Assembly: GCA_016212085.1 (NCBI GenBank)
Contig: JACRHL010000003.1
Location: 321,178 to 385,177, forward strand
Length of the DNA: 64,000 nt
Reading direction: 5' to 3'
Source: Nitrospirota bacterium
Lineage (GTDB): Bacteria; Nitrospirota; JACRHL01
Positions within the stretch are counted from its first letter, which is position 1, and the number at the start of each line of letters is the position of its first letter. Positions 17,766 through 51,024 of the stretch are shown piece after piece. Made by a program: the position numbers and the translations under genes. The notes below the pieces were generated by a model, which saw only the letters and a list, made by a program, of their open reading frames with translations, was not told where the DNA came from and ran no database searches.

Positions 17766-18170
17766 ATGACCGACGGATTCTATTACGCGATACTCATATC
17801 CTGGCTGCTGTCGTTCCTGTTCTACGGCCTCGCCGGAGGGCTGATCAAGGCCCGCACGGTCGGCCGCACGCCGCACATCATGCTCACCGTGGGCGGCTTC
17901 ATGACCGACTTCGTCGCCTACTTCTTCCAGACCCAGCACCTGGTGATCCTGGCGGCCACCGTGCCCGGCTTCGCCCTGGACCCGGCGCTGCGCGGCTGGC
18001 AGACCGTGGCGACAAACCTGTCCATGGCCATGTATTGCGTGACGGCGATGTTCGGCTTCGCGCGCGTTGTCGGGTGGCACGGCGTGGGCCGCTGGCACGT
18101 GCCCGTGGCGCTGCTGTTCGTGGTCAACCTGGTGACGGCGCGGACCCTCTACTGGCGGCTGATTAACTAG
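17766..18170 (+). CDS. hypothetical small membrane protein
   Basis: 134-aa ORF with 3-4 predicted TM helices; ends with TAG inside the CTAG that flanks the downstream repeat; no recognised family. Confidence 0.4.
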   Translation: MTDGFYYAILISWLLSFLFYGLAGGLIKARTVGRTPHIMLTVGGFMTDFVAYFFQTQHLVILAATVPGFALDPALRGWQTVATNLSMAMYCVTAMFGFARVVGWHGVGRWHVPVALLFVVNLVTARTLYWRLIN

Positions 18171-18335
18171 CAGACTGTTGAAAAAGTCCTTCCATGGACT
18201 TTCTCAACTCGAAACCGGCAAAGCGCGGTTTCCCGGTTTCTCCGGATTGCAGGCGCTGACGCGCTCGCAATCCGCCGGCACATCCCTGTGCCGGACGCAG
18301 ACATGCCGAAAAACGGTGTTTTAACCGCCTGCTAG
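18167..18335. mobile_element. hairpin-rich mosaic repeat element, family A (copy 1), flanked by CTAG/CTAG
   Basis: Core 18171-18331 begins CAGACTGTTGAAAAAGTCC...GGACTTTCTCAAC (perfect hairpin), further hairpins inside; CTAG at 18167-18170 and 18332-18335 provide TAG stops to the convergent flanking genes. Confidence 0.6.
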
Positions 18336-19630
18336 CCGCGCTCCAGGCGGCGCGAGACGGCGTGGGCCGCCTCCCACACCGTCTCGCTCAGGGTGGGGTG
18401 CGGAAACACCGCCGCCGCCAGGTCGTGAACGGTCATCCCGGCCCGGATGCAGGCCCCCAGCAGGCCCGCCAGATCGGTCACCCCCGCCCCCGCGAGCTGG
18501 GCGCCCGCCAGCCGCCCCGCCCCGTCCGCCACCAGCCGCACGCCGCCCGCCACCTGGCCGGTCACCACCGCCATGCCGTTGGCGCGGAAGATGGCCTCGC
18601 CGGTCACCCGGTCCGGCCCGGCGCCCACCCCCACCGAGGCCAGTTGCGGATGGGTGTAGATGCACGCCGGGATCAGCATCGCGTCCAGCGGCGCCGGGTT
18701 CCTGCCCGCCAGCCACTCGGCGGCGATGCGCCCCTGGGCATGGGCCCGATGGGCAAGCAGCGGCGGGCCGCTCAGGTCGCCGATGGCGAGCACCCCGTCC
18801 ACGGCGGTGCGGCCGTGACCATCCACCGGGATGCCCCACGGTTGCGGATCGAGGCCCACGGCGTCCAGCCCCAGGCCGCTCAGGTTGGGATCCCGCCCCA
18901 CCGCCACCAGCACCTGGTCCGCCGCCAGTTCCCGCTCCCCGTCCGGGCCCGCCACGCGCAGGGCGATGCCCTCCGCCGTCACCGTGGCGGCGGTGACGGC
19001 CGCGCCGCACAGCATGTCGATGCCGGCGGCGCCGAATGCCCGCTCCAGGTGTCTGGCCAGCCACGGGTCCTCACCGGGAAGCAGGCGCTCGCGGGCCTCG
19101 ACCAGGGTCACCCGCGCGCCACGGGCGCGGAAGATCTCGGCGAACTCCACCCCCACCGCCCCGGCACCGATCACGACCAGGTGGCCGGGAACGGCCCCCG
19201 GCGCCACCGCGTGGTCGCTGGACAGCACGCGCGCGCCGTCGAACGGCAGGCCGGCCAGGGGGCGCGGCCGGGAGCCGGTGGCGAGCACCACATGGCGGAA
19301 ACGCACCTCCCCGTGCCCGGCCACATCGGCCACGCCGGGGCCGGCCAGGCGCGCGGCGCCGGGCAGCACGGCGACCTTTTTCAACAACTGGGCGATCCCC
19401 CGGCGCAGGGCGGCAATGGCCGCGTCGTTCATGGCCACCCGCTCCGCCAGCGCCACACCGGCGCCGGCCAGCAGCCCCTTGGTGGGGATGCAGCCCCGGT
19501 TCAGGCACACGCCGCCCAGCTCCGCCGGCTCCGCCAGCGCCACGCGCAGGCCCAGCTCCGCCGCGCGCGCCGCGCAGGCGTAGCCACCGGGGCCGCCGCC
19601 CACCACCAGCAGGTCGAAGCGATCAGCCAC
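18332..19630 (-). CDS. FAD-dependent pyridine nucleotide-disulfide oxidoreductase (dihydrolipoyl dehydrogenase family)
   Basis: DLLVVGGGPGGY FAD motif, redox-active GGVCLNRGCIPTK disulfide, NAD site VVIGAGAVG; GTG start 19630 after GGAGGG. Confidence 0.75.
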   Translation of the reverse strand: MADRFDLLVVGGGPGGYACAARAAELGLRVALAEPAELGGVCLNRGCIPTKGLLAGAGVALAERVAMNDAAIAALRRGIAQLLKKVAVLPGAARLAGPGVADVAGHGEVRFRHVVLATGSRPRPLAGLPFDGARVLSSDHAVAPGAVPGHLVVIGAGAVGVEFAEIFRARGARVTLVEARERLLPGEDPWLARHLERAFGAAGIDMLCGAAVTAATVTAEGIALRVAGPDGERELAADQVLVAVGRDPNLSGLGLDAVGLDPQPWGIPVDGHGRTAVDGVLAIGDLSGPPLLAHRAHAQGRIAAEWLAGRNPAPLDAMLIPACIYTHPQLASVGVGAGPDRVTGEAIFRANGMAVVTGQVAGGVRLVADGAGRLAGAQLAGAGVTDLAGLLGACIRAGMTVHDLAAAVFPHPTLSETVWEAAHAVSRRLERG

Positions 19631-20329: not shown

Positions 20330-21220
20330 ATGGGACCGCCTCGCCAGACACCGGGAACCGACCACGCGGCGCTTCGCGAGCACCGGGCCCACCCGCGCGC
20401 CTTTCACGAGAACCGCTACGTGTACGCCGTGCTGTCGCGGCGCTCCGGCGGCATCTCCATCGGCGTCAACCTGAACCCGGACAAGCGCTGCAACTTCGAC
20501 TGCATCTACTGCCAGGTGGACCGCCGGTGCATGCCGCCGCCGGAGCCGGTGAACCTGGAACAACTGCGCGACGAGCTGGAGGGCGTCCTGGCCGCCGCCG
20601 CCCGCGGCGACCTGTACGCCGAGGCGCGCTTCCGCGACCTGCCGCCCCCCCTGAGACAGGTGCGCGACATCGCCCTGTCCGGCGACGGCGAGCCCACCCA
20701 GTGCACCCGTTTCGAGCGGGTGGCCGAGGTGGTCACCGAACTGGCCGCCCGCCACGCCACGCCACCGCTGCCGGTGGTGCTGATCACCAACGCCACCGGC
20801 CTGAACCGGAGCCGGGTGGTGCGCGGGGTGGACCGCATCATGGCCGGCGGCGGCGCCATCTGGGCCAAGCTCGACGCGGGCACGGCGGAGCGCTACGCGC
20901 GCATCTGCGGCCACCGGGTGCCGTTCCGGAAGGTGCTGGACAACCTGGCGGCCACCGCGCGCCGCCACCCCGTCACCCTGCAAACCTGCCTGTTCAACCT
21001 GGAGGGCAGCCCCCCGCCGGACGGGGAGATCGACGCCTACGCGAAACAGCTCGCCAAAATATTGGCGAATGACGGTCAAATCCTTGGCATCCAGCTTTAC
21101 ACGGTGGCCAGAAAACCGGCGGAATCCTGCGTGACCGCCCTCGACGCGTCCACCCTGGACGCCATCGCCGCCCGCATCGGCGCGGCCCTGCCCACGGTGC
21201 CGCTGCACGTTTATCCATAG
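20330..21220 (+). CDS. radical SAM domain protein
   Basis: CNFDCIYC (CxxxCxxC) about 50 aa from start, preceded by SRRSGGISIGVNLNP; start uncertain (ATG 20330 vs TTG 20321). Confidence 0.7.
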   Translation: MGPPRQTPGTDHAALREHRAHPRAFHENRYVYAVLSRRSGGISIGVNLNPDKRCNFDCIYCQVDRRCMPPPEPVNLEQLRDELEGVLAAAARGDLYAEARFRDLPPPLRQVRDIALSGDGEPTQCTRFERVAEVVTELAARHATPPLPVVLITNATGLNRSRVVRGVDRIMAGGGAIWAKLDAGTAERYARICGHRVPFRKVLDNLAATARRHPVTLQTCLFNLEGSPPPDGEIDAYAKQLAKILANDGQILGIQLYTVARKPAESCVTALDASTLDAIAARIGAALPTVPLHVYP

Positions 21221-21385
21221 CAGGATGTTGAAAAAGTCCCTCCATGGACTTTTTCAACTCGAAAACGGCAAAGCGTGGTTTCCCGTTCTCTCCGGGTTTC
21301 AAGCGCTTGCGCGCCTGAAACCCGCCGGTACCTCCCTGTACCGGGCGCAGGCTGTTGAAAAAGTCCCTCCATGGACTTTTTCCAA
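21218..21385. mobile_element. hairpin-rich mosaic repeat element, family A (copy 2)
   Basis: Begins immediately after radical-SAM TAG stop: TAG|CAGGATGTTGAAAAAGTCCCTCCATGGACTTTTTCAAC...; same hairpin repeated at its 3' end; TAG/ATAG at both ends. Confidence 0.55.
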
Positions 21386-21507
21386 TAGACCGGCCCGTGA
21401 CCGGCGCCCGGCGGCGCCGCCGGCGCGGGGTTGGCGCAGGGTTGGCACGGGAAATGCTATTCCTAACCTTTCGGGAGGGACAAAACCGCCCCCCGGAAGG
21501 AATCGTC

Positions 21508-21658: not shown

Positions 21659-21801
21659 GGGCACCTCTAAAAACCTGCTACGCGGTTCGATTGCTGCGTT
21701 GGGCGGTGCTCGAACCCTCTCCTATCACCATGATATGTCTCGGGTTCTGTGCTCCGGCCACCTTGCACTCGAACCGCTCGCAACGGTTTTTAGAGGTGCC
21801 C
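21659..21801. mobile_element. 143-bp MITE, family B (intergenic copy upstream of dnaE)
   Basis: TIRs GGGCACCTCTAAAAACC / GGTTTTTAGAGGTGCCC; 4-bp direct duplication TGGT on both sides. Confidence 0.7.
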
Positions 21802-21952: not shown

Positions 21953-25579
<3,627 letters not shown>

Positions 25580-28451: not shown

Positions 28452-29147
28452 CTAAGGCATCGAATAAACGGTTGGGTCTTCCTGCCCTGCCTCCACAAAT
28501 CCCCTCCTCCGCAAAATGCAGCTATCGCACTGCCCGCACGCCCGGCCCTTCTCGTCCGGGTCGTAGCAGCTATGGGTCAGGCCGTAGTCCACCCCCAGGC
28601 GGATTCCCTCCCGGATGATGTCCGCCTTGGTCATGCGGATCAGGGGGGCGTGGATGGTGAAGCGGCCGCCCTCGGCGCCGGCCTTGGTGGCCAGGTTGGC
28701 CAGGTTCTCGAAGGCGCCCAGGAATTCCGGCCGGCAGTCCGGGTAGCCCGAGTAGTCGATGGCGTTGGCGCCCACGAAGATGTGGAACGCGCCCAGCACC
28801 TCGGCATAGGCCAGGGCCAGGGCCAGGAACACCGTGTTGCGCGCGGGCACGTAGGTGACCGGGATGTCGTCCCCCATGTGTTCGGCGCTGCGGCCCTTGG
28901 GCACGTCTATCGCGTCCGTCAGGGCGGAGCCGCCCAGGTCGCTCAAGTCCACCCGCACCGTCTTGTGGGCCAGGGCGCCCCCGGCCGCCGCCACCTTCCG
29001 CGCCGCCGCCAGTTCCACCCGGTGGCGCTGGCCATAGTCGAAGCTGATGGCGTAGGGGGCGTAGCCCTGGGCCTTCGCCATGGCCAGCACCGTGGCCGAA
29101 TCCAGGCCGCCGCTCACCAGCACCACCGCCTTCCGGACACCTTCCAA
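28452..29147 (-). CDS. queC: 7-cyano-7-deazaguanine synthase
   Basis: N-terminal [14 protein letters not shown]-loop, C-terminal Zn-binding CGQCDSC; proposed TTG start 29147 lies inside the adjacent MITE terminus. Confidence 0.8.
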
Positions 29148-29277
29148 AACCTGCCGCGCGCCCCGATCGCTGCGTTGGGCGGTGCCCGGCCCCTCGCCTA
29201 TCGGCTTGACATGTCTCGGGGCCTGCGCTCCGTCCGCCTTGCGCTCGGGGCGCTCGCCACGGTTTCCGATGGTGCCC
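29135..29277. mobile_element. 143-bp MITE, family B (degenerate copy at queC 5' end)
   Basis: Degenerate TIRs GGACACCTTCCAAAACC / GGTTTCCGATGGTGCCC; internal sequence matches other copies (ccgagacatgtc, gcgatcggggcgcgc). Confidence 0.6.
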
Positions 29278-34281: not shown

Positions 34282-34446
34282 GGGCACCTCTATTAACCGT
34301 CGCGCGCGCCCCCTGGTGCCAGGTGCCCCGAGCGGAGCGGCACCGTTACGCCGCGCGGAACCCGAGACATATCCGGGTGATGGGCGAGGGTTCGAGCACC
34401 GCTGGGCGCGGCAATCGGGGCGCGCGGCAGGTTGATAGAGGTGCCC
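34282..34446. mobile_element. 165-bp MITE, family B (copy with internal expansion)
   Basis: TIRs GGGCACCTCTATTAACC / GGTTGATAGAGGTGCCC; no matching target duplication; abuts transposase remnant. Confidence 0.7.
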
Positions 34447-38557: not shown

Positions 38558-38690
38558 GTTCCCATGCAGTGTGTTGCAAAAGCTCTTCCCCGGCTTGTTC
38601 AACTCGAAACCGGAAAAGCGTGGTTTTCCGGTTTCTCCGGCGCCAGAAAAGCCTCTCACACGGATTGTCACCCTGCGGATGCGGGCGGGT
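38558..38690. repeat. partial family A repeat element
   Basis: ttgttcaactcgaaaccggaaaagcgtggttttccggtttctccgg closely matches the central hairpin module of the other family A copies. Confidence 0.45.
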
Positions 38691-39436: not shown

Positions 39437-39581
39437 GGGCACCTCTATTAACCGTCGCGAGCGCCCCGAGCGCAAGGCGGACTTAAGCGGAGAACCCGAG
39501 ACATATCATGGTGATAGGAGAGGGTTCGAGCACCGCTTAGGCGCAGCAATCGGGGCGCACAGCAGGTTAATAGAGGTGCCC
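39437..39581. mobile_element. 145-bp MITE, family B
   Basis: TIRs GGGCACCTCTATTAACC / GGTTAATAGAGGTGCCC; 4-bp duplication ACAT on both sides. Confidence 0.75.
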
Positions 39582-42583: not shown

Positions 42584-43459
42584 TTACGGTCGTTGGCGAA
42601 AGCGTTTGAGGCCGTCCTGCATGGTTCGTTCCGAAAAGAAGCGGTCCGGCAGGCCGGCATTGACCCGGACATCGCCCATTTCCAGGGTCGTGGCGTCGCC
42701 GGAGCGGGTGTCGCGCGCGGCGACCCGGTCCCACACCCAGACGCCGTCCACCTGTCGCCAGGTGAACGCGACCTCCTTCCACGTGCCGTCCGGCCTCAGG
42801 TAGCGGGTGAGCAGCGGCAGCGCATCGCTCCGCGATACCCACGTACGCACCTTGGCATAGGGTGACTCGGCATCTGTCGGGACGCTGTCGATCACCTCGG
42901 CAAGCTGGCCGGAAACCACCTCGGTTCCCGTGGTCTGGTGGCCGCCCAGGGCGGAGGCGCGCATTTCCAGCTCGGTCCGCCTCAGCACGGAGGCATCGAA
43001 GGGATCGGTCTCGGCGGTGCCGTGACCGTGCGTGTGGCGGTGCGGTTGCGTCATCCGGCGCACGGTCCGCAATTCGGGGATGTACAGCCACGCCTCCTCG
43101 CCACCGGTGGTCTGGAACCACCCCATGTAGGCGAACCCCTTGGCGGTGGCGGGCTCCTCGCTGAAGAAGATGGCCTTGGAGGTATATTTCGAGCCCGCCG
43201 GATAGGGCTTCCAGAACATGACGTACACCAGCCGCCGGGGCGCCTCGCCGGGCCGGGAGGTGGTGAACGTCAGGCGCGCCTCGATGTCGCCGGCCGCGCG
43301 CGTGGCGGCGGACCGCGCCATCCAATCCGCCGCCCCCGTCCCCTCGGAAAGGGCCGGGGAAGCGGTCAGCGCCGCGGCGATTGCCGCCCACATGGCGACC
43401 GTGCGGGCGGTCGCCATGTGGGCGCGTCCGGGCATGCTCCGTCCCAGCCAGCCGCGCAT
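42584..43459 (-). CDS. LolA-like outer-membrane lipoprotein-sorting-family protein (DUF1329-like)
   Basis: Secreted ~290-aa protein with LolA-like beta-rich profile; start ambiguous (43459 / 43417 / 43393); abuts upstream cytochrome stop. Confidence 0.5.
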   Translation of the reverse strand: MRGWLGRSMPGRAHMATARTVAMWAAIAAALTASPALSEGTGAADWMARSAATRAAGDIEARLTFTTSRPGEAPRRLVYVMFWKPYPAGSKYTSKAIFFSEEPATAKGFAYMGWFQTTGGEEAWLYIPELRTVRRMTQPHRHTHGHGTAETDPFDASVLRRTELEMRASALGGHQTTGTEVVSGQLAEVIDSVPTDAESPYAKVRTWVSRSDALPLLTRYLRPDGTWKEVAFTWRQVDGVWVWDRVAARDTRSGDATTLEMGDVRVNAGLPDRFFSERTMQDGLKRFRQRP

Positions 43460-43461
43460 GC

Positions 43462-44103
43462 TCAGCGGAGGGTGTGCAGGTAGGCGGCCACCGCCGCGCG
43501 GGCGCGGTCATCCATCGGGAAGGTGGGCATGAAGGTGCCCGGCTTGATGGCCTGGGGATCCTTGAGCCACGTGGCCTCCCATTCCGGGTAGATTTTGGCG
43601 CCGACGCGGGTGAGGTCCGGGTAGCGGCTGCGCCCCTCCGTCCCGATGCGGTGGCAGGCGCGGCAGTCGAATGCGCCAACCAGGCGCTCCCCGGCCACCT
43701 CGGGAGACGGTGCGGCGGCGACGATGGCGCGATGGTCCACCGGTGTCGCCAGGCTGCTCAGGTAGGCGATCAGGTCGGCCAGTTCCTGGTCCGACTCCCA
43801 CTCGAAGGTGGGCATGTCGGTGCCGGGAACCACCAGGCTCGGATCGCGCAGCCAGTTCTCGATCCATTCGGGTTTTCTGCGCACGGCCAGTTGGGTCAGA
43901 TCGGGGCCGACCTGCCCCCCCTTGTGACGGATCGAATGACAGCCCTTGCAGGCCCGTTGGGTGAACACCTTCTCGCCTTCGGCCACCCGTCCGGGGGGCA
44001 GGCCGTCGTCATCATCCGCCGCCCATGCCGGATTGGCGAGGGCGAACAGCGCGAGGGCCATCATCAACGCGGGCGTGAATCCTATCCAGCGCTTGAAACT
44101 CAT
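43462..44103 (-). CDS. dihaem c-type cytochrome
   Basis: Signal peptide; two CxxCH sites (CKGCH, CRACH), each followed by a conserved Met-containing segment. Confidence 0.8.
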   Translation of the reverse strand: MSFKRWIGFTPALMMALALFALANPAWAADDDDGLPPGRVAEGEKVFTQRACKGCHSIRHKGGQVGPDLTQLAVRRKPEWIENWLRDPSLVVPGTDMPTFEWESDQELADLIAYLSSLATPVDHRAIVAAAPSPEVAGERLVGAFDCRACHRIGTEGRSRYPDLTRVGAKIYPEWEATWLKDPQAIKPGTFMPTFPMDDRARAAVAAYLHTLR

Positions 44104-44375
44104 TGTGTACATCCTCTTTGGATCGTGACGCGTGGTGGACCACCCTCCGGGCATCGCGTCGCGACGGATGCCAGGCGTGGCCCAACCCTGTTCCCGCCGG
44201 ACCGGGTGGGAGACGCGGGGAGGGGAATCCCGGCCCGGCGGGATGGACCGGCGGAGACCGAATGCGCGGATCGGGATGGAGGGCGATCCGCGCGCCGCCG
44301 GTCCAGGACCGCGCCCGGACAGCGCGCGACGACTGCGTGCGTGGCGCTGCCCGGACACGGATCCAACCCAGGCCG

Positions 44376-44936
44376 TTACATCGCGCCCGGTACCGGCGTC
44401 GGCACGGTCTTGGCACCACCCGGATCGACCTTCTTGCCGCTGGCGAAGGAGGTCACGTAGGCCGCCAGATCCACCGCCGCCTGGGAATTGCGGTCGAGCG
44501 GATCACCCTTGAGGAAGCTCATGATGCACATGTTGTCCATGCCCATCAGGTCCACCACCGCCTTCATGGGGCCGGCCGGCTTCGGGAAATGGCTGGCGGC
44601 GGTCTTCAGCGTGGGGATCGCGACCTTCATGGTCATGCCCTTCCACTCCATGTCCGCCGCGCCGCCGATGGTGTTGCCGCCGGGGTGGCAACTGGCGCAG
44701 CTCTGCCCCGTCTTGTTGTGGCCCAGGGAGGTGTCGTTGAACAGCACCTTGCCCCGCTCCACGGATGCCTTGAGGGTGTCCGGCTCCATGGTCATCATCA
44801 TGGTCATCATGGCCTTGATCTCGTCGGGGGGCAGGTAGGGGTCCATCCCGCCCTCGGCGAAGGCCAGCCAGGCGGGGCCGGCGAGTGCGGCCGTCAGGGT
44901 GGCGCCCAGTACGAGTCGTTTGTAAATCGGCTTCAT
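44376..44936 (-). CDS. monohaem c-type cytochrome
   Basis: Signal peptide; haem site CASCH preceded by GKVLFND (peroxidase/TsdA-like context); RBS ggaggag. Confidence 0.75.
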   Translation of the reverse strand: MKPIYKRLVLGATLTAALAGPAWLAFAEGGMDPYLPPDEIKAMMTMMMTMEPDTLKASVERGKVLFNDTSLGHNKTGQSCASCHPGGNTIGGAADMEWKGMTMKVAIPTLKTAASHFPKPAGPMKAVVDLMGMDNMCIMSFLKGDPLDRNSQAAVDLAAYVTSFASGKKVDPGGAKTVPTPVPGAM

Positions 44937-44976
44937 CTCCATCTCCTCCATGCTGGGAATCCCGGCCGGGATGGCC

Positions 44977-45109
44977 GGGCGACTAAAAACTACTGCGCGG
45001 CTCGATTGCCGCGTTGGGCGGTGCCCGCACTCTCTCCACGAGATGTCTCGGGTCATGCGCTCCGTCCGCCTTGTGCCCGAACCATTCGCGTCGGTTGTTG
45101 GCGGTACCC
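44977..45109. mobile_element. 133-bp MITE, family B (degenerate copy)
   Basis: Degenerate termini GGGCGACTAAAAAC / GGTTGTTGGCGGTACCC; internal match to family core. Confidence 0.55.
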
Positions 45110-45160
45110 GATACGACACGGATGGTCGCACCGATGGAGGTTGCGGGACCGTAAGCGGGC

Positions 45161-45868
45161 TTACGTTTCGGCACGAAACACCTCAAGCGCGCCGCGATCG
45201 AGAATCCGGATGCTGCGCCGGTCGAAGGAGACCACACCCTGGCTCCGGAACGCGCCCATGGTGAGGCTGACGGTCTCGCGCGTGGAGGCGATGAGGCTGG
45301 CCATTTCCTGATGGCTGAGGCCGGGCCGCAGCTCGATGTCGTTCCCGGCCGGCCGGCCCATCTGGTCGGCCAGTTCCAGGAGCAGGTCGGCCAGGCGCGC
45401 GGAGACATCCTTGAACAGGAGGCGCTCGATACGGTTCTCGAAGCGCCGGAGGCGCAAACCGATGAGCTTGGTCAACCGGATGGACAGGGCCGGCCGGGCC
45501 GCCATCATGGCGGCGAAATCCTCACCGCGGATGATGCATATGGCCGCGTTGTCCATCGCGAACGCGTGGGACTCATGGGTTCCGGCGTTCATGGCCGCCA
45601 CCTCGCCGAAGATCTCCCCCGGCCCGAGGATCGCCAGGGTCAGTTCGCGCCCATCGGGGAGCAGTCGGGAGATCTTGATCCGTCCGGCCTTGAGGAGGTA
45701 GACGTGCTCGCCCGGCTCCCCCGCCCCGTAGATGCATTCATGCCGCGCCACGGATGCCATGCGGGTGATCTCGCCCATGGCCTTGAGCTCGTCAACGCCC
45801 AGGTCGGCGAACAACTGAATCTGCTTGAGGAACCAGATCTTCGTGAGGGGGGATAGCACTGTCTGCAT
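45161..45868 (-). CDS. Crp/Fnr-family transcriptional regulator
   Basis: cNMP-binding domain (GEPGEHVYLLKAGRIKISR) and C-terminal HTH; upstream of the cytochrome operon. Confidence 0.8.
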   Translation of the reverse strand: MQTVLSPLTKIWFLKQIQLFADLGVDELKAMGEITRMASVARHECIYGAGEPGEHVYLLKAGRIKISRLLPDGRELTLAILGPGEIFGEVAAMNAGTHESHAFAMDNAAICIIRGEDFAAMMAARPALSIRLTKLIGLRLRRFENRIERLLFKDVSARLADLLLELADQMGRPAGNDIELRPGLSHQEMASLIASTRETVSLTMGAFRSQGVVSFDRRSIRILDRGALEVFRAET

Positions 45869-46150
45869 AGAGATCGGCTCTCGACCAGGACATCGAATCG
45901 AATGGAAAACCGCAAAGACAACCTCTTGCCATAAACAGCGGGCCACCTGTCGCTTATTCCGACTGAACCGCGTGGCTTGGCGCGGCACCATGACGCGGCC
46001 GCACCCCGTCGAAAGGGAGGGGGCCGCCCGAATGGAAGAAATTCGCCGCCACGGCGGATTAATGGAACCAGGGCGTCGCACGGCGCTTGGATCCAGGGAC
46101 TGTTCGGAACGTGAGGGCACCCGACCGTGGCGCATACCCCATCGCCCCCC

Positions 46151-47011
46151 ATGCCATCGGACAAGGCCATATTCCGGCCGATGCTGACCCTGGCCGCGAT
46201 GGTCGCGTTTGCCGCCAATTCGGTATTGTGCCGGCTGGCGCTCACCGAGACGGACATCGGCCCCGCCGCCTTCACCGCCACGCGCCTCGCCACCGGCGCC
46301 ATCGTGCTGTGGATCGTTCTGGCATTGCGCGGCCGACCGAGGGGGGCCGCGGGAAGCCGTGCCGGCGCTATCTTCCTGTTCTGTTATGCCGCGGCATTTT
46401 CCTTTGCCTACGTCGATCTGCCGACCGGCACCGGAGCGTTGCTCCTGTTCGGCGCGGTCCAGTTGACCATGATCGTCTGGGGAATCCGGAGCGGCGAGCG
46501 CCTGAACCGTGTCCAGGCGGGGGGGCTTCTCGCGGCGTCAGGGGGCCTGGTATGGCTTCTAATGCCGGGAATCTCCGCCCCGCCGGTGGGGACCGCCATG
46601 ACCATGTTTGGCGCCGGCGTGGCCTGGGGCGCCTATTCGTTGTTGGGGCGGGGGACGGGCGATCCCCTGGCGGCCACGGGCGGCAACTTTCTGCTTGCGC
46701 TGGCACCGGCGCTGGCATTGGTGGTCACGGCGTGGCCGCATCCGCGGTGGGACGGGTTGGGCATGGTCTATGCCGCGCTGTCCGGTGGCGTGGCCTCGGG
46801 GCTCGGCTATGCGGTCTGGTATGCGGCCCTGCGCGGGCTGTCGGCCACGCGGGCGGCCACGGTGCAACTGTCGGTCCCCCTGATCGCCGCGGTTGGCGGG
46901 GTGCTGTTCCTGTCCGAACCATTCACGGCGCGCCTCGCCGTCGCTTCGGTTCTCATTCTTGGTGGCATCGCGCTGGTGGCGGTCACGCGAGGAGGTGTCG
47001 GCAAGCCTTGA
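46151..47011 (+). CDS. DMT-superfamily (EamA-like) transporter
   Basis: Ten predicted TM helices in two EamA-like halves; start uncertain (46127 GTG / 46151 ATG / 46181 ATG). Confidence 0.65.
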   Translation: MPSDKAIFRPMLTLAAMVAFAANSVLCRLALTETDIGPAAFTATRLATGAIVLWIVLALRGRPRGAAGSRAGAIFLFCYAAAFSFAYVDLPTGTGALLLFGAVQLTMIVWGIRSGERLNRVQAGGLLAASGGLVWLLMPGISAPPVGTAMTMFGAGVAWGAYSLLGRGTGDPLAATGGNFLLALAPALALVVTAWPHPRWDGLGMVYAALSGGVASGLGYAVWYAALRGLSATRAATVQLSVPLIAAVGGVLFLSEPFTARLAVASVLILGGIALVAVTRGGVGKP

Positions 47012-47128: not shown

Positions 47129-47323
47129 CTATTGGCCGAGTTGGCGTGGCGGGCACGGCGTGCTGCCGAACGAGCAGAACACGCAGCAATCCCCCTGGCG
47201 GGGCCGCAGCATGGTTCCGCAGCCCGTGCACCGGTAGAAGAACTGGCACGCGTCCGTGGGCATGGCCTCGGTTTTCCGGTGTCCGCAATGGGGGCAGGTG
47301 AGGGTGGAACTCAGGATCGGCAC
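47129..47323 (-). CDS. small cysteine-rich protein (CPHCG ... GDCCVFCS), putative metal-binding
   Basis: 64 aa with 8 Cys; GTG start preceded by AGGAGGAA; last gene of the mer-type operon. Confidence 0.5.
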   Translation of the reverse strand: MPILSSTLTCPHCGHRKTEAMPTDACQFFYRCTGCGTMLRPRQGDCCVFCSFGSTPCPPRQLGQ

Positions 47324-47523
47324 GACGGTTTCCTCCTGATCAGGGCCCATGCGATCATGCCCACGAAGCATGCCAGGGCCGGCAGCAACACGTAGTTCAG
47401 CCACCCCACCCACGCCGACAGGCCCAAGGCGCCCAGCAGGATCACCAGCGCGGGCGTGAAGCAGCAGACGGCGGCGAGGGTGGTGCCGGCGATTCCGGTC
47501 CCGAGCAGTCTCTTGTCCGTCAT
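47311..47523 (-). CDS. merF: mercury transporter MerF-like
   Basis: 70 aa, two TM helices, vicinal Cys (LAAVCCFTPALVILLG), C-terminal Cys; ATG overlaps merB stop (ATGA). Confidence 0.75.
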   Translation of the reverse strand: MTDKRLLGTGIAGTTLAAVCCFTPALVILLGALGLSAWVGWLNYVLLPALACFVGMIAWALIRRKPSCRS

Positions 47524-48302
47524 CGTGATGTCCTTCGCGGGTTGGATGCAAGGGTTGAAAGCGGCGCCAGGAGCGGCGCGAAGATGGCCTTGCCGACCTG
47601 GAGCCCCTCGTCGATGGAGAGGCGCACACCCGGCGCGCCCCCTGGTTGAGATTGGCGCCAGGATACGAGGTGCTCGTCGGAGCAGAAGAACGCCAGCGCC
47701 GGGCAGAGGGTGTCGGCGGCACAGCCGCCGGTGTTCCTCGCCCCCGCCCAGACCACGGCGCCCTCGGGCGCCACGGCCTCCAGGGTAGCGCCCCGGTCTC
47801 GGGTGGTGACATGGACGGCCGCGCCGCAAGTGGCGCAGGCCGAGTCGATGGCGGTGTCTGTGCGATACATGGCCCCGGCGCCCAGGGCGTCGATGGCGCA
47901 CATGGCGTTCAGCACCTGGCCGCCCAGCCGTACCCGGTGCCCGGTTTCCCGGTCCCGGAACGGGTAGGCCCCCGTCACGTCGCCGTGTGCGTCCAGCACC
48001 ACCAGGTCGCGCCCTTCCAGTTGCCGCAGCAGGCGGCGTACCTCGTCCAGCGGCAGGTCGGCGGCGAGGTGTTCGACGGAAGGGGCACGGCCCCGATCCG
48101 CATAGCCATCGAGCACGGCCCGCCGCACGCGGTCCTCCGCCTCCCCCATGCCGGTCCAGCACCGTTCGGCGTCGAATGCGGCGAGGATCGCGGCCAGTGC
48201 CCGACGGGCCGCCTCCGAGGTGATTGCCGACCAATCCGGGAAGGTCACGCCGGGTCCGATGGAGATTTCGAGGGGGGTCCGGGTGGGTCGCGGTATGTCC
48301 AT
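47520..48302 (-). CDS. merB: organomercurial lyase
   Basis: Catalytic-region match (NAMCAIDALG with Cys/Asp, later Cys cluster); ~45-aa N-terminal extension; GGAGG RBS before ATG 48302. Confidence 0.7.
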   Translation of the reverse strand: MDIPRPTRTPLEISIGPGVTFPDWSAITSEAARRALAAILAAFDAERCWTGMGEAEDRVRRAVLDGYADRGRAPSVEHLAADLPLDEVRRLLRQLEGRDLVVLDAHGDVTGAYPFRDRETGHRVRLGGQVLNAMCAIDALGAGAMYRTDTAIDSACATCGAAVHVTTRDRGATLEAVAPEGAVVWAGARNTGGCAADTLCPALAFFCSDEHLVSWRQSQPGGAPGVRLSIDEGLQVGKAIFAPLLAPLSTLASNPRRTSR

Positions 48303-48322
48303 GCGCTGGCCCTCCATGCTCA

Positions 48323-48465
48323 GGGCACCTCTATTAACCGTCGCGAGCGCTCCGATTGCAAGGCGGACGGAGCGGAGAACCCGAGACATATCTGGGTGAT
48401 AGGCGAGGGTTCGAGCACCGCCCAACGCAGCAATCGGAGCGCGCAGTAGGTTAATAGAGGTGCCC
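48323..48465. mobile_element. 143-bp MITE, family B (inside mer operon, between merP and merB)
   Basis: TIRs GGGCACCTCTATTAACC / GGTTAATAGAGGTGCCC; 4-bp duplication CTCA on both sides. Confidence 0.75.
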
Positions 48466-48466
48466 C

Positions 48467-48748
48467 TCACTCGACCGGCCGCGAGGGGTAGCCGGCGTTG
48501 GTCGTCGCCCGGGTGAGGGCCCCCACGTCCGTGAGCACATCGTCGAACGTCACCACGGCTTGCTTGTGCAACAGGGACACCTTGACCGCCTTCACGCCGG
48601 GAACATGGGAAAGGGCCTTTTTCACGGTGATCGGGCAGGTGACGCAGGTCATCCGCTCCACCCCCAGGGTGACGGTCCGCTCCGTCGCGATGGCGTTTCC
48701 GGTGGACACCAGGAGAGCGACGGCCACCAGGATCGGTACAAGCTTCAT
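48467..48748 (-). CDS. merP: periplasmic mercury-binding protein
   Basis: Signal peptide plus HMA motif GMTCVTCPITVKKAL; 93 aa; AGGAGGG RBS. Confidence 0.85.
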   Translation of the reverse strand: MKLVPILVAVALLVSTGNAIATERTVTLGVERMTCVTCPITVKKALSHVPGVKAVKVSLLHKQAVVTFDDVLTDVGALTRATTNAGYPSRPVE

Positions 48749-48768
48749 CGGATCGTCCCTCCTTCCGT

Positions 48769-49155
48769 TCAGACACCCCCGTACAGGGGGGCCAGGTAGG
48801 GCAGCGCCAGGATCGCCAGCACCAGTAGCGCCGCGCTCCACAAGGCAATCTTCACCATCCGCCCGGAACCGGGCCGGGTGCACTCCCCCTCCGGCCCGCA
48901 GGCGGCCGCCGGCTTCCGGTAGGCGAGCCGGAACCCGGCGGCGAGCAGGACGACGGTCAGGGCCATGAAGTAGGGCTGGTACGGCGCCAGGGCCGTCAGC
49001 CCGCCCATCCAGGCGCCGCCCAACCCCAGGCTTACCAGCACCAGCGGCAGGATGCAGCAGGACGAGGCGGCGAGTGCCCCCAGCACGGCGCCGCCGGCGA
49101 CCACGCCGCGCCGGGCATGACCGCCGCCAATGTGCTCTCCACCCGCGTCCTTCAC
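48769..49155 (-). CDS. merT: mercuric ion transport protein
   Basis: First TM helix with vicinal Cys (LAASSCCILPLVLVSLG), second Cys pair (CGPEGEC); GTG start 49155 overlaps upstream stop (GTGA); alternative ATG 49218. Confidence 0.7.
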   Translation of the reverse strand: MKDAGGEHIGGGHARRGVVAGGAVLGALAASSCCILPLVLVSLGLGGAWMGGLTALAPYQPYFMALTVVLLAAGFRLAYRKPAAACGPEGECTRPGSGRMVKIALWSAALLVLAILALPYLAPLYGGV

Positions 49156-49418
49156 AGCGCCCGACCGACGCCCGCGGCTCGCAACCGCGCCTCGTCCACC
49201 CCCGCGCCCGCACAGCATTGGGCCAGGCGGCCATCCACCGCCACCGCCGGGAGCGCCCGCACCCCCAGATCGGCCGCCTTCGCCGCCACGGCGGGTGCGC
49301 GCATGTCCAGCACGCTCACCGCGCACGCGGGGCAGGCGAGCCGCTCCACGAGGCGGACCGCCTCCTCGCACACGGGGCACCCGGCGCTGAATACCTCGAC
49401 CCTGCGTTTGTCGGTCAT
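49152..49418 (-). CDS. thioredoxin-fold protein with CPxC active site
   Basis: 88 aa; RVEVFSAGCPVCEEA...LPAVAVDGRL resembles small thioredoxin-family proteins; GGAGGAA RBS; first gene after the mer promoter. Confidence 0.6.
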   Translation of the reverse strand: MTDKRRVEVFSAGCPVCEEAVRLVERLACPACAVSVLDMRAPAVAAKAADLGVRALPAVAVDGRLAQCCAGAGVDEARLRAAGVGRAL

Positions 49419-49518
49419 CGTTCTTCCTCCCGACTTGCGTGGCCGCCGCCCCCGGAAAACGGGTTTGGCGGCCGTGCGGTTCCATACCTGGCAGGGGCCG
49501 CGTGCCCCCTCTTCTGCT

Positions 49519-49549
49519 ACGATAGAACCTGTAGTGGCTACAGGTTCAA
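49519..49549 (-). promoter_or_regulatory. MerR-type promoter/operator: -35 TTGAAC, 19-bp spacer containing dyad, -10 TATCGT
   Basis: On the minus strand TTGAAC-(19 bp)-TATCGT; the spacer holds the perfect inverted repeat GAACCTGTAG-tgg-CTACAGGTTC (49525-49547); lies between divergent merR and the mer operon. Confidence 0.6.
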
Positions 49550-49566
49550 GGGGGGAGCGGAAAAAA

Positions 49567-49989
49567 ATGGGCACGGAAGCGGATTCGGTCTGTTCCATCG
49601 GGGCGCTGGCGGCGCGTACCGGCGTCAACGCGGAGACGATCCGCTACTACGAGCGGATCGGGCTGTTGCCCCGGCCGCGGCGCACGGACGGCGGACATCG
49701 CCTGTACGACCACGGCCAGCGCAAGCGGCTCGTCTTCATCCGGCGGGCGCGGGAGCTGGGCTTCTCGGTGGAAGAGGTGCGGGAACTGCTACGGCTGGTG
49801 GACGGCGGCGATCACACCTGCGCCGAGGTGAAATCCGTCACCGTGCGTCATCTGGCCGACGTGCGCCGGAAGCTCGCGGATCTCGGGAAGCTGGAGCGGA
49901 CCTTGGGCACGATCTCCGCGCGCTGCGCGGGCGGACTGGTGCCGGACTGCCCCATCCTGGATGCGCTGTTCGAGGACGGGCTTGGCTAG
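49567..49989 (+). CDS. merR: Hg(II)-responsive transcriptional regulator MerR
   Basis: N-terminal HTH (IGALAARTGVNAETIRYYERIGLL), metal-binding Cys triad (HTCAEV ... CAGGLVPDCP); GGGGAG RBS. Confidence 0.85.
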   Translation: MGTEADSVCSIGALAARTGVNAETIRYYERIGLLPRPRRTDGGHRLYDHGQRKRLVFIRRARELGFSVEEVRELLRLVDGGDHTCAEVKSVTVRHLADVRRKLADLGKLERTLGTISARCAGGLVPDCPILDALFEDGLG

Positions 49990-50155
49990 CAGGTTGTTGA
50001 AAAACGGCGTTTTTCGGCATGACTGCGTCCGGTACCGGGAGGTACCGGCGGATTTCACGCGGGCAAGCGCCTGGAATCCGGAGAAACCGGGAAACCGCGC
50101 TGTTCCGGCTTCAAGTTGAAAAAGGCCACGGATGGACTTCTTCAACATCCCGCCG
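49986..50155. mobile_element. hairpin-rich mosaic repeat element, family A (copy 4, opposite orientation)
   Basis: Starts at merR stop: CTAG|CAGGTTGTTGAAAAACGG...; ~80% identical to the reverse complement of copy 1. Confidence 0.55.
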
Positions 50156-50160
50156 GACCA

Positions 50161-51024
50161 TCAGCCGGGCGAATCCGCCTTAAGCCACGCGGCCAGGTCG
50201 GCGAACACCGCCCGGCGCTCCGTTTCCAGCAACACCTCGTGGAACATCTCCGGGTATTCCCGGTAGGTGGCCGCCGGGCAGCGGGCGCACCACGCCCGCG
50301 CCGCCGCCGGCGCCACCACCCGGTCGGCGCCCGCCTGCAAACACAACAGCGGCAGGTCCACGTCGGCGGCGTGGGCGTTCACGAACGCCATCTCGCGGCA
50401 CACCTCCGTGAACCAGCGCACGTTCACCCACTTGAAGATGAGCGGGTCGGCACGGCGCCGCGCCTCCTGCTCCGGGTCGTGGCTGTTGGCGTAATCGCCG
50501 CCCCCGGCGGGTAGCGACAGCCACGGCAACGCGCCGCTGACCAGCTCCCCCAGGCGCCGCCGCAGGGGCGGCACCGGCAGGCGGATCGCAAGCAGCGGCG
50601 AGGTGACGGCCACCCGCTCCACCCCCCAGCGCGCCAGCGCCGCGGGGCGCCGGATCAGGGACGACAGCGCCACCAGGCCGCCGGTGCTGTGGCCGAGCAG
50701 GGCCCAGCGCGCCACCCCGGAGCGTTCGCGGGCGGTGGCCAGGGCCTGGTGCAGGTCGTCCAGATACTCCTCGAAACGCCCGAGGCGGCCACGCAGGCCG
50801 CTGGAGCGGCCATGGCCACGCGGGTCCATGGCCCACACGGCCAGGCCCCGGCCCGCGAAGAACGCGAACAGCTCGCCGTAGCGCTCCAGGTGGTCGGTAT
50901 AGCCGGGCAGCAGGAACAGGCCGCGGCCGGCGCCGTCCGGGGTGATGCCGGCCAGGTGCAGGCGGGCGCCCGGAACGGGCAGGGTCAGGTGCTGGGTGCC
51001 CTCGGGAAGGGGGCGGGGGGTCAC
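50161..51024 (-). CDS. alpha/beta-hydrolase (lysophospholipase/monoacylglycerol lipase-like)
   Basis: Nucleophile elbow GHSTGG, HGRSSG oxyanion region; GTG start 51024 overlaps upstream stop (GTGA). Confidence 0.75.
   Translation of the reverse strand: MTPRPLPEGTQHLTLPVPGARLHLAGITPDGAGRGLFLLPGYTDHLERYGELFAFFAGRGLAVWAMDPRGHGRSSGLRGRLGRFEEYLDDLHQALATARERSGVARWALLGHSTGGLVALSSLIRRPAALARWGVERVAVTSPLLAIRLPVPPLRRRLGELVSGALPWLSLPAGGGDYANSHDPEQEARRRADPLIFKWVNVRWFTEVCREMAFVNAHAADVDLPLLCLQAGADRVVAPAAARAWCARCPAATYREYPEMFHEVLLETERRAVFADLAAWLKADSPG

Follow-up and report, generated by a model that had tools for sequence, protein, structure and literature searches.

The locus analysed here is a real and intact mercury-handling operon that encodes a MerB-family lyase and has no mercuric reductase gene. 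It lies in a window of 64 kb, by which we mean the whole stretch of DNA that was analysed, and its minus-strand genes run in the order trx-like gene, merT, merP, a 143-bp MITE, merB, merF and a gene for a Cys-rich GDCCVxC protein, with merR divergent from them. In many bacteria, GDCCVxC recurrently replaces merA. Our working reading, which we regard as evenly poised between right and wrong, is that this is a MerA-less uptake and lyase operon in which merA was replaced by GDCCVxC and a six-Cys trx-fold protein was added, with Hg(II) being handed to Cys-rich cytosolic acceptors. An earlier note on this DNA had called the same seven genes, and each was recovered at or near the position given there; profile searches upheld its assignments of MerT, MerP, MerB, MerF and the Cys-rich ORF and reassigned none of them. 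The note had also called the locus atypical. This is correct in that a mer operon without merA is present, but the locus is not a one-off and belongs to a recurrent architecture.

Searching the window by tblastn with bona fide MerA, we found no MerA, as the note had claimed, and in this respect the locus departs from a canonical mer operon. The search returned an Lpd-like gene only (18332-19630), which lies 28 kb off and which we rejected as a MerA because its best family is dihydrolipoyl dehydrogenase and it has no C-terminal Cys pair. A merA just beyond the window in the same operon, named in the note as a finding that would overturn its view, is excluded by geometry, because the genes that border the operon at either side lie on the opposite strand and at least 14 kb separate it from either window end.

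The divergent merR (49567..49989, plus strand) encodes 140 aa with the Pfam domains MerR_1, MerR and MerR-DNA-bind. The MerR-type promoter/operator described in the note (49519..49549, minus strand) was read directly from the sequence: a -35 element TTGAAC (49549-49544) and a -10 element TATCGT (49524-49519) are separated by a spacer of 19 nt, and the operator is a perfect 10-3-10 dyad (GAACCTGTAG-CCA-CTACAGGTTC). A divergent merR with a 19-bp-spacer dyad promoter, as in canonical mer operons, is thus present, and near-identical operators were found upstream of merT in merA-containing relatives (L013, L064, L030 and L043). The regulator scored 124.4 bits with the MerR equivalog TIGR02051 (cut-off 150.85) and nearly the same with other models (CueR 122.9, ZntR 118, CadR about the same), staying below every cut-off. 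Its three Cys aligned with C82, C117 and C126 of Tn501 MerR, with a spacing of C-x7-C instead of C-x8-C; regulators of merA-containing relatives have the same three-Cys C-x7-C pattern.

We consider it highly improbable that the operon serves another soft metal or organometal (Cu, Ag, Au, Cd, Pb, organotin or organolead) instead of mercury. The regulator's equal scores with the MerR, CueR, ZntR and CadR models would fit such a role, and C-x7-C is the Cys spacing of CueR. Copper genes near trx-like and GDCCVxC genes point the same way, as does the ability of MerB-family sites to take other metals (bioRxiv 10.1101/2022.07.06.499078). However, the same type of regulator and operator runs operons whose bona fide MerA scores higher than the NCBIfam cut-off, and both MerP and MerF of the window pass their equivalog cut-offs. 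The regulator also keeps the Cys aligned to MerR C82, a position typical of divalent-ion sensors.

merT (48769..49155, minus strand) encodes 128 aa, also according to an independent gene call, and matched Pfam MerT with 84.4 bits (cut-off 32.9) and NCBIfam NF010314 with 96.9 bits, under the cut-off of 150. The protein has a CC pair in TM1 (SSCCILP) and a loop pair (CGPEGEC). merP (48467..48748, minus strand; 93 aa) scored 103.2 bits with TIGR02052, above the equivalog cut-off of 92.55, and matched Pfam HMA; with a signal peptide and an MTCVTC motif, its product is a predicted periplasmic Hg-binding protein. MerF (47311..47523, minus strand; 70 aa) scored 93.1 bits with NF033565 (cut-off 50) and 73 bits with Pfam Transport_MerF, and has the TM1 Cys pair (VCCFTP). 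Prototype MerF carries a C-terminal cytoplasmic Cys pair. We found no C-terminal CC pair in the window MerF, which ends in ...RRKPSCRS with a single Cys, and most MerF proteins of the same clade likewise lack it.

The merB-like gene (47520..48302, minus strand) encodes 260 aa and matched Pfam MerB (PF03243; EC 4.99.1.2) with 106.8 bits, well over the gathering score of 27, while staying below the NCBIfam equivalogs PRK13239 (65.5 against 193 bits) and NF033555 (59.5 against 200). It falls in an alphaproteobacterial 'MerBA-type' clade, annotated as 'alkylmercury lyase family protein', which includes MerBA fusions and merB1 of pMR68. C135, D138 and C200 align with the catalytic Cys96, Asp99 and Cys159 (3f2g, 5c17), and the triad is invariant in 15 clade members. 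The protein is predicted to have a MerB fold: its AlphaFold2 model (pLDDT 87.5) retrieved MerB2 and MerB in Foldseek with TM scores of 0.76-0.81, and for 5c17 and 3f0o the probability was 1.0 and the target-normalised TM score 0.77-0.81. The N-terminal extension pointed out in the note is real, as the NCBIfam MerB profile begins at about residue 61 and residue 35 of PDB MerB corresponds to query residue 72, but it occurs across the clade and is not peculiar to this gene. Membership in the SaoL family of the SAO system was considered and rejected, with a score of 69.1 bits against a cut-off of 140, no CU motif and mer genes as neighbours. Cleavage of the C-Hg bond by the window lyase is putative and is supported indirectly by pMR68, whose MerB is 41% identical and whose cloned operon made E. 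coli resistant to phenylmercury and able to volatilise it (PMC3737084). Xanthobacter autotrophicus Py2, which bears MerBA, breaks MeHg down to Hg(0) (PMC10114901).

The last gene of the operon (47129..47350, minus strand) scored 106.2 bits with the GDCCVxC (seleno)protein family NF041374 (cut-off 40). Its likely start, read from the sequence, is GTG 47323, giving a protein of 64 aa, with AGGAGG at 47336-47331 inside the merF end. Such a merF/GDCCVxC gene overlap occurs in the window, L006 and L028 and argues for co-expression. All nine invariant Cys of the family are present (C19xxC22, C35, C41xxC44, C55C56xxC59 and C66). A C-terminal CC tail is common in the family, where at least 90% of 30 aligned proteins have Cys; it was not found in the window protein, which stops at ...CPPRQLGQ. 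The protein collection contains no sequence identical to the window protein, whose gene is uncalled on public contigs. The structure was predicted with moderate confidence (pLDDT 73.5), and zinc-ribbon matches were weak.

The first gene of the operon (49152..49418, minus strand) encodes an 88-aa trx-like protein with three Cys pairs (C14xxC17, C29PxC32 and C68C69). It matched Thioredoxin_3 (PF13192) weakly, with 23.4 bits against a gathering score of 24.8, and gave weak ArsE/MJ0307-like matches; most of its homologues have a precomputed PF13192 match. The family (∼88 aa) shows 56-82% identity across phyla, with five Cys invariant and C29 present in at least 90%. In the merB-clade set the gene was confined to GDCCVxC-type loci (3 of 9 clusters compared with 0 of 33 merA-type clusters), and homologues elsewhere are found in loci with MerR and MerT, MerC or HMA, where MerA is absent. 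Copper genes often occur near trx-like and GDCCVxC genes.

Comparison of related loci revealed what stands in the place of merA. Several relatives carry merA in the slot after merF, in the order merR/merT-merP-merB-merF-merA (L003, L008, L010, L013, L030 and others), and others carry GDCCVxC in the same slot, in the order merR/merT-merP-merB-merF-GDCCVxC (L005-L007). Among 52 dereplicated merB-locus relatives, 33 had merA only, nine had GDCCVxC only, none had both and ten had neither; the Fisher p of 2.5e-5 for this exclusion is only indicative because the counted loci are not phylogenetically independent. On the MerB tree, GDCCVxC-type loci lie in scattered places, corresponding to at least seven independent switches. 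Povalibacter uvarum offers a caught replacement of merA, with a merA stump of ∼95 codons followed by GDCCVxC, and full merA in the sister locus. None of 80 GDCCVxC-centred metagenome loci contained merA, and mer transporters adjoined GDCCVxC in 30 of the 54 informative ones. The usual context is merR/merT-merP-GDCCVxC, of which the 'defective' mer locus of Tn5563 is one instance. Full-length merA was missing from each of the six plasmid loci inspected, four of them having GDCCVxC straight after merT/merP. In many loci (for example L066, L096, L122, L163 and the Jiella plasmid) GDCCVxC comes together with a conserved MerA-like flavoprotein that shares 34% identity with MerA; its active site is CALRGCDPKK, and it lacks both the N-terminal Hg-binding domain and the C-terminal CC pair. 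Remnants of a MerA-like flavoprotein lie beside GDCCVxC in L108 and L110, so some GDCCVxC-only loci arose by deletion.

The MITE that the note had placed between merP and merB is indeed there (48323-48465; 48319..48469 with its target duplications). It is 143 bp long; its terminal inverted repeats are perfect over 17 bp, and a 4-bp CTCA target duplication flanks it at 48319-48322 and 48466-48469. Repeat-sequence matches in the window numbered 9 compared with 0.07 expected, and we counted five full copies, of which four align over their whole length and the fifth has a degraded terminal repeat, as well as two partial or diverged ones; copies are 143-165 bp long and 4-bp target duplications were seen at three of them. 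With terminal inverted repeats, target-site duplication, multiple copies and no ORF, the element has the properties of a MITE. Public short-read assemblies break at it. The insertion point is the merP stop codon, within the former 17-nt merP-merB spacer; the insertion restores this stop and does not disturb the merB ribosome-binding site. The predicted RNA hairpin is strong (-106.5 kcal/mol, z = -7.3), and the element has no Rfam match and no terminator-like site. Transcription presumably reads through it.

A MITE with such a hairpin splitting the operon could mean that the locus is a decayed remnant, a mer operon that lost merA, was disrupted by the MITE and is now non-functional or mildly harmful, with GDCCVxC as a bystander. 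In favour of this, the literature calls merRTP of Tn5563 defective and reports that the Hg MIC is often reduced by this module (PMC4785139, PMC4447125), and deletion scars are present in L046, L108 and L110. We nevertheless consider decay decidedly unlikely here. All seven ORFs are whole, with Shine-Dalgarno sites and overlapping start and stop codons: the merT GTG overlaps the trx-like stop codon (GTGA), the merF ATG overlaps the merB stop codon (ATGA), and the trx-like gene has GGAGG 7 nt ahead of its ATG. The catalytic and metal-binding Cys are conserved, the promoter/operator is perfect, and neither the merP stop nor the merB ribosome-binding site was harmed by the MITE. Moreover, this architecture has several independent origins and a very wide distribution, the GDCCVxC family comprising at least 2450 protein clusters and the gene being present on 352 plasmids.

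In the reading of an intact MerA-less uptake and lyase operon, binding of Hg(II) to the three Cys of MerR would activate the 19-bp-spacer promoter, and MerP, MerT and MerF would import Hg(II) and probably organomercurials too. The MerB-like lyase would split the C-Hg bond with Cys135, Asp138 and Cys200. Thiol exchange may then move Hg(II) from the transporters and MerB on to the GDCCVxC and trx-like proteins, which would buffer or sequester it, standing in for the NmerA domain and the C-terminal Cys pair of MerA. The operon would encode no reduction step, and formation of Hg(0) would require unlinked host enzymes. An alternative Hg(II) route through these two proteins had been suggested in the earlier note; the exclusion between merA and GDCCVxC, their shared slot and the confinement of the trx-like gene to GDCCVxC-type loci give it comparative support, while the binding and transfer of Hg(II) by both proteins, as well as its fate, are inferred. 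Import of Hg(II) without reduction can be harmful, which counts against this reading: removing merA from a broad-spectrum mer operon made E. coli hypersensitive to organomercurials (PMC10114901), and with the Tn5563a merRTP(+GDCCVxC) module the Hg MIC fell in six strains and rose in two (PMC4447125). The moderate confidence of the GDCCVxC model with its weak zinc-ribbon matches, the missing CC tail of the window copy and the origin of some GDCCVxC-only loci by deletion also speak against it.

Alternatively, reduction could take place in trans. GDCCVxC would be an adaptor delivering Hg(II) to an unlinked flavoprotein, either a merA elsewhere or a MerA-like oxidoreductase without its own Cys tail, and the locus would supply uptake and lyase functions as one half of a complete broad-spectrum system. 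The pairing of GDCCVxC with the MerA-like flavoprotein and the MerA-like CC tail at the end of most GDCCVxC proteins argue for this, and merA was also found in 91 of 93 merB-carrying MAGs of one survey (PMC9948709). The host-dependent phenotype of Tn5563a fits the need for a host factor (PMC4447125). We take this alternative seriously and still find it unlikely, as the sole MerA relative in the 64-kb window is Lpd-like, the window GDCCVxC lacks the CC tail, 47 of the 54 informative GDCCVxC loci have no adjoining flavoprotein, and MerB-only genomes are reported as numerous (PMC8261052).

It is possible, though we would not count on it, that GDCCVxC, helped by the six-Cys trx-fold protein in some lineages, provides a widespread MerA-independent handling of cytosolic Hg(II), either as a dedicated sink of high affinity or as a detachable module that delivers Hg within a two-component reductase. 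If true, this would explain the demethylation tolerance of 'MerB-only' organisms and the persistence of 'defective' merRTP modules such as that of Tn5563 on hundreds of plasmids. The swap of merA for GDCCVxC, recurrent in many bacteria, is a lead on how "lyase-only" microbes cope with released mercury.

Among known systems, the alphaproteobacterial-type broad-spectrum mer operons share with the window the divergent merR, the same operator, merT/merP/merF and the MerB clade (41-61% identity), and those of the L003 type share even the gene order. They are represented by pMR68 of Pseudomonas K-62, with merR-orf4-orf5-merT-merP-merF-merA-merB1. The window differs from them in having a 64-73-aa GDCCVxC in the merA slot, a trx-like first gene and the merP-merB MITE. 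The MerBA fusions of soil Alphaproteobacteria (Xanthobacter, Bosea, Sinorhizobium plasmids) have a lyase domain of the same clade (∼52% identity) with the N-terminal extension, but there the lyase is covalently joined to the reductase, the tightest possible coupling, whereas the window operon has no reductase. The selenocysteine-assisted organometallic (SAO) system likewise combines a MerB-family lyase (SaoL), a Cys-overloaded thioredoxin-fold protein (SaoT) and metal transporters (bioRxiv 10.1101/2022.07.06.499078). SaoL is nominally the best NCBIfam match of the window MerB, yet far under the cut-off, and the CU/Sec motif and the Sao transporter and partner genes have no counterpart in the mer context of the window. 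Tn5563/Tn5563a, on IncP-6 and other plasmids, shares a merA-less MerR-controlled module with GDCCVxC straight after merP, and differs in having no merB, merF or trx-like gene; the Tn5563 papers list merRTP alone and do not mention the GDCCVxC ORF (PMC4785139, PMC4447125). Modules of this type are also present on Xanthomonas and Hydrogenophaga plasmids. A similar logic may underlie the window operon and engineered Hg accumulators, with GDCCVxC as the putative cytosolic Cys-rich trap. In such accumulators MerT-MerP is combined with metallothionein, and Hg(II) is imported and trapped instead of reduced. Compared with these, the window system is natural and MerR-regulated and includes an organomercurial lyase.

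The mer locus occupies positions 47129-49989 of the window and consists of a divergent merR gene and a minus-strand operon; every protein of the locus belongs to a named family. The merR gene (49567-49989, plus strand; 140 aa, Pfam MerR domains) is separated by the promoter/operator (49549-49519, minus strand, read from sequence) from minus-strand genes for a thioredoxin-like protein of 88 aa (49418-49152; Thioredoxin_3, 23.4 bits versus 24.8), MerT (49155-48769; 128 aa, Pfam MerT, 84 bits), MerP (48748-48467; 93 aa, TIGR02052, 103 bits with a cut-off of 92.6), a MerB-like protein (48302-47520; 260 aa, Pfam MerB, 107 bits), MerF (47523-47311; 70 aa, NF033565, 93 bits with a cut-off of 50) and a small cysteine-rich protein of the GDCCVxC family (47350 or 47323 to 47129; NF041374, 106 bits with a cut-off of 40). 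The stop codon of the thioredoxin-like gene is overlapped by the GTG of merT, and that of merB by the ATG of merF. Unrelated genes border the locus, with a convergent EamA transporter gene downstream (46127-47011, plus strand) and an alpha/beta hydrolase gene on the other side (50161-51024, minus strand). We left the EamA protein out of the system as a possible Hg-thiol exporter because its gene is not conserved beside related loci. Past it, at 43400-46200 (locus L001, 2484-4890), lie a Crp/Fnr-type regulator gene and several c-type cytochrome genes (SoxA/TsdA-like, cbb3-type), with no evident tie to the mer locus. The G+C content of the window is 70%, and values across the mer locus (0.66-0.75) are the same as in its flanks. 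Recent horizontal acquisition was rejected, as the composition shows no anomaly and the nearest MerB homologue is 61% identical.

The earlier note had described a textbook MerR-type promoter, and this description holds. The minus-strand intergenic region contains TTGAAC (49549-49544) and TATCGT (49524-49519) separated by a 19-nt spacer, with a perfect 10-3-10 dyad, GAACCTGTAG-CCA-CTACAGGTTC. From HMM searches alone the identity of the regulator is ambiguous; it scored 124 bits with the MerR model (cut-off 151) and much alike with CueR, ZntR and CadR. The promoter is linked to mercury because merA-containing relatives have near-identical operators and regulators sharing three cysteines. The same operator sequence is present upstream of merT in L064, an operon with a bona fide merA, and close variants precede merT in operons with bona fide merA at L013, L030 (Xanthobacter autotrophicus) and L043 (Methylobacterium). 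The three cysteines are common to the window regulator and those of merA-containing operons in our alignment; they align with C82, C117 and C126 of Tn501 MerR but have C-x7-C spacing throughout the clade. That the locus serves a different metal is very improbable, given that its type of regulator and operator is common to merA-containing operons.

We searched the 64-kb window for merA with a motif scan and with tblastn, using as queries a MerA-like flavoprotein (see below) and MerA from comparison locus L003 (558 bits on TIGR02053). Only an Lpd-like gene was returned (18332-19630, minus strand), in agreement with the earlier claim that the window holds no mercuric reductase. This gene is unlinked to the mer genes and encodes the sole flavoprotein disulfide reductase in the window. 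We rejected it as MerA, since its best family is dihydrolipoyl dehydrogenase (TIGR01350, 361 bits, below the cut-off of 409) and it has no C-terminal cysteine pair; guaB (16049-17515) lies about 800 bp from it. A merA just outside the window in the same operon, named at the outset as a finding that would overturn the reading, is excluded because opposite-strand genes close the operon on both sides and the window ends are at least 14 kb away.

In relatives of the locus, merA is recurrently replaced by the GDCCVxC gene, and the two are mutually exclusive. We fetched 80 loci with relatives of the window MerB and scored their neighbours. The commonest architecture was merR|merT-merP-merB-merF-merA, and the window has this gene order with the GDCCVxC gene standing in the position of merA. 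Dereplication at 90% MerB identity left 52 clusters, of which 33 had merA without GDCCVxC, nine had GDCCVxC without merA, none had both and ten had neither (several of these are cut by contig ends). Fisher's test for the exclusion gave p = 2.5e-5, a figure that is only indicative because the loci are related. The GDCCVxC-type loci are scattered over a neighbour-joining MerB tree, and therefore at least seven changes of state have occurred. In Povalibacter uvarum DSM 26723 (L046 10678-11308) the first ~95 codons of merA persist between merB and the GDCCVxC gene; in its sister L064 merA is full-length, and DNA homology between the two (81%) stops ~280 bp into merA. L046 is one switch from merA to GDCCVxC caught in the act. 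GDCCVxC-type merB loci are also carried by the cultured strains Novosphingobium nitrogenifigens DSM 19370 and Sphingomonas panni DSM 15761. The likely start codon of the window GDCCVxC ORF (47129-47350, minus strand) is a GTG at position 47323; the ORF thereby overlaps the end of merF, in which an AGGAGG lies. The two genes overlap in two independent loci as well (L006 and L028), which suggests that merF and the GDCCVxC gene are co-translated. In related operons, MerA or GDCCVxC is often followed by a predicted membrane protein of 130 aa that has a CGRMHC motif and no Pfam match (L003 10528-10920; also in L012, L096, L122, L124, L128, L140 and L174); it is absent from the window.

The GDCCVxC family, matched by at least 2450 protein clusters and carried by 352 plasmids, has an NCBI name without an attached function. 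Its members share nine invariant cysteines (CPxC, C, CxxC, GDCCVxC and C). The window ORF is apparently unannotated, because there was no exact match among 5.8 billion clustered proteins and public contigs with this sequence carry no gene call for it. MerA with a CC tail was found in none of 80 metagenome loci centred on close relatives (0/80). Of these, 54 had enough upstream sequence, and in 30 of the 54 the GDCCVxC gene directly followed mer transporter genes, typically as merR|merT-merP-GDCCVxC. MerB occurred in only one GDCCVxC-centred locus and the thioredoxin-like gene in only one, and the two were never together among the 54 informative loci (0/54). In seven GDCCVxC-centred metagenome loci, in a Sphingomonad/Paracoccus mobile locus (L063-L077) and on a Jiella plasmid, GDCCVxC is paired with a conserved MerA-like flavoprotein of ~450 aa, which has the active site CALRGCDPKK and neither an N-terminal Hg-binding domain nor a C-terminal CC. 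With MerA it shares 34% identity, and its TIGR02053 score is 290 bits (cut-off 454). The two genes lie side by side in mer-like operons (flavoprotein at L066 10663-12087, L096 3266-4609, L122 1613-2974, L163 502-2097 and L175 5242-6588), and residual or internally deleted flavoprotein copies were seen in L108 and L110. Together, GDCCVxC and the flavoprotein may form a two-component mercuric reductase. The main rival to our preferred reading (given below) is that GDCCVxC only ferries Hg(II) to an unlinked reductase. This frequent pairing argues for it, as does the C-terminal CC tail of at least 90% of family members, but the window has no such flavoprotein and its GDCCVxC copy has no tail, and we consider the ferry unlikely.

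The thioredoxin-like protein belongs to a family of 88-89 aa with 56-82% identity across Acidobacteria, Deltaproteobacteria, Armatimonadota and Pseudomonas. Five cysteines are invariant and the sixth (C29) is present in at least 90% of members, forming the pairs C14xxC17, C29PxC32 and C68C69. All three contexts examined contained a MerR-family regulator and MerT/MerC-type transporters or HMA proteins, and none contained MerA. In the MerB survey the gene was present in 3 of 9 GDCCVxC-type versus 0 of 33 merA-type clusters (p ~0.007, hypergeometric, calculated by hand). The combination of merB, GDCCVxC and the thioredoxin-like gene is rare (3/52 clusters). In Pseudomonas sp. MBLB4123 (L088 5001-8135), two six-cysteine paralogues flank a MerR-family regulator, with DsbD-like and HMA genes, beside a cluster for copper resistance. 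The role of the family may extend to soft metals other than mercury.

The window MerB matches an "alkylmercury lyase family protein" from a Nitrospirae MAG at 100% identity, and its next relatives reach 61% identity at most. It belongs to a family of ~260-aa proteins matched by at least 682 protein clusters, with at least 492 loci in species-representative genomes, mostly of Alphaproteobacteria. [quoted passage not shown] Alignment with solved structures (MerB2, 5c17, E = 1.8e-13; MerB, 3f2g, E = 1.4e-7) places C135, D138 and C200 on the catalytic C96, D99 and C159. All three, together with C156xxC159 and C207, are invariant across the family. An AlphaFold2 model (pLDDT 87.5, pTM 0.86) matched MerB structures with TM scores of 0.76-0.81, normalised to target. 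The N-terminal extension of ~45 residues pointed out in the earlier note is real and ordered in the model (pLDDT 86-95); it is not peculiar to this gene and is a feature of the clade, because it is ordered and has a conserved PGVxFPDWS motif. Annotated lyase-reductase fusions (MerBA), found on plasmids from Bosea, Sinorhizobium, Xanthobacter and others, have this lyase domain as their N-terminal portion, and a review reports that Xanthobacter autotrophicus Py2, which has MerBA, breaks MeHg down to Hg(0) (PMC10114901). Another family member, 41% identical, is merB1 of the Pseudomonas K-62 plasmid pMR68, whose cloned operon gave E. coli phenylmercury resistance and volatilisation (PMC3737084). 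We filed the window gene as a probable MerB-family lyase of alphaproteobacterial type because of the catalytic-residue alignment, the predicted fold, the MerBA fusions and the links to pMR68 merB1 and Py2.

A 143-bp MITE lies between merP and merB (48323-48465), as first noticed from the sequence, with perfect 17-bp terminal inverted repeats (GGGCACCTCTATTAACC) that match the window nine times versus 0.07 expected. Further copies are found at 21659-21801, 24463-24605, 34282-34446 (with a 22-bp internal insertion) and 39437-39581, and two more, at 29135-29277 and 44985-45037, are diverged or partial. A 4-bp target duplication accompanies three of the copies: CTCA (operon copy), TGGT (21659) and ACAT (39437). 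The CTCA duplication includes the merP stop codon. The insertion harms no ORF and no ribosome-binding site, because removing it in silico restores a 17-nt merP-merB spacer with GGAGGG before the merB ATG. The predicted RNA fold of the MITE is a hairpin with a free energy of -106.5 kcal/mol (z = -7.3). An RNA element or terminator was rejected, as neither an Rfam match nor a predicted terminator-like site was found in or near it; a sigma-70-like site was likewise absent, as expected of a scan covering only 16-18-nt spacers. In public short-read (Logan) assemblies from the same organism, contigs end exactly at the operon MITE, and breaks also occur at other copies. A second family of short repeats, whose inverted ends are GCAGGTTGTTGAAAAA / TTCTTCAACATCCCGC, has a copy at 49989-50153 and others at 18168-18300, 21218-21350, 21347-21389 and 38594-38640. 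The first of these directly follows the merR stop codon, so that the mer locus has a MITE-like element of one family at its edge and an element of another family inside it.

Sequence comparison and modelling establish the identities of the parts, the mercury-type promoter/operator, the intact active site and predicted fold of MerB, and the recurrent exchange of merA for GDCCVxC, the two excluding each other. How the parts work together is more tentative. The reading we prefer, which in our estimate stands at an even chance, is a MerA-less uptake and lyase operon. Binding of Hg(II) by MerR would switch the operon on; Hg(II), and probably organomercurials too, would be imported via MerP, MerT and MerF; and MerB would cleave the C-Hg bond. 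The GDCCVxC and six-cysteine thioredoxin-like proteins would take over Hg(II) by thiol exchange and then buffer or sequester it, the operon itself apparently encoding no reduction step.

The GDCCVxC gene is also present in the Tn5563-type merR-merT-merP locus of a Klebsiella plasmid, right after merP (L181 4989-5201), and directly 3' of merP in similar modules on Hydrogenophaga and Xanthomonas plasmids (L182, L183). This type of locus occurs on clinical IncP-6/IncU plasmids, and the gene is missing from published Tn5563 descriptions; on IncP-6 carbapenemase plasmids the locus has been termed defective (PMC4785139). The Tn5563a module increased the Hg MIC in two strains and decreased it in six (PMC4447125). 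This often negative phenotype, together with the deletion scars in some relatives, would fit a window locus that is a decayed remnant; however, its ORFs are intact, the cysteines are conserved, the genes are coupled and the architecture recurs independently, which makes decay improbable.

Our literature search found no paper mentioning GDCCVxC, including the selenoprotein preprint on SAO (bioRxiv 10.1101/2022.07.06.499078), and no description of GDCCVxC systematically in the place of merA (in mer operons, lyase-containing ones and Tn5563 among them) or of a six-cysteine thioredoxin-fold protein travelling with merA-less loci. In the "defective" mer locus that Tn5563 brings to carbapenemase plasmids, the GDCCVxC gene has gone unnoticed. 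Should GDCCVxC trap Hg(II) or pass it on, environmental surveys in which merB stands for MeHg detoxification to Hg(0) would have to be revised, estimates of microbial Hg volatilisation versus retention would shift, and Hg bioaccumulation would gain a natural part. In canonical systems Hg(II) goes from MerB straight to MerA (PMC10114901, PMC8261052), and how cells with MerB and without MerA survive the released Hg(II) is an openly stated puzzle (PMC8261052). Two specific candidates for MerA-less Hg(II) handling, both clonable, emerge from the locus and its relatives, and with them this long-standing question can be put to simple experiments.
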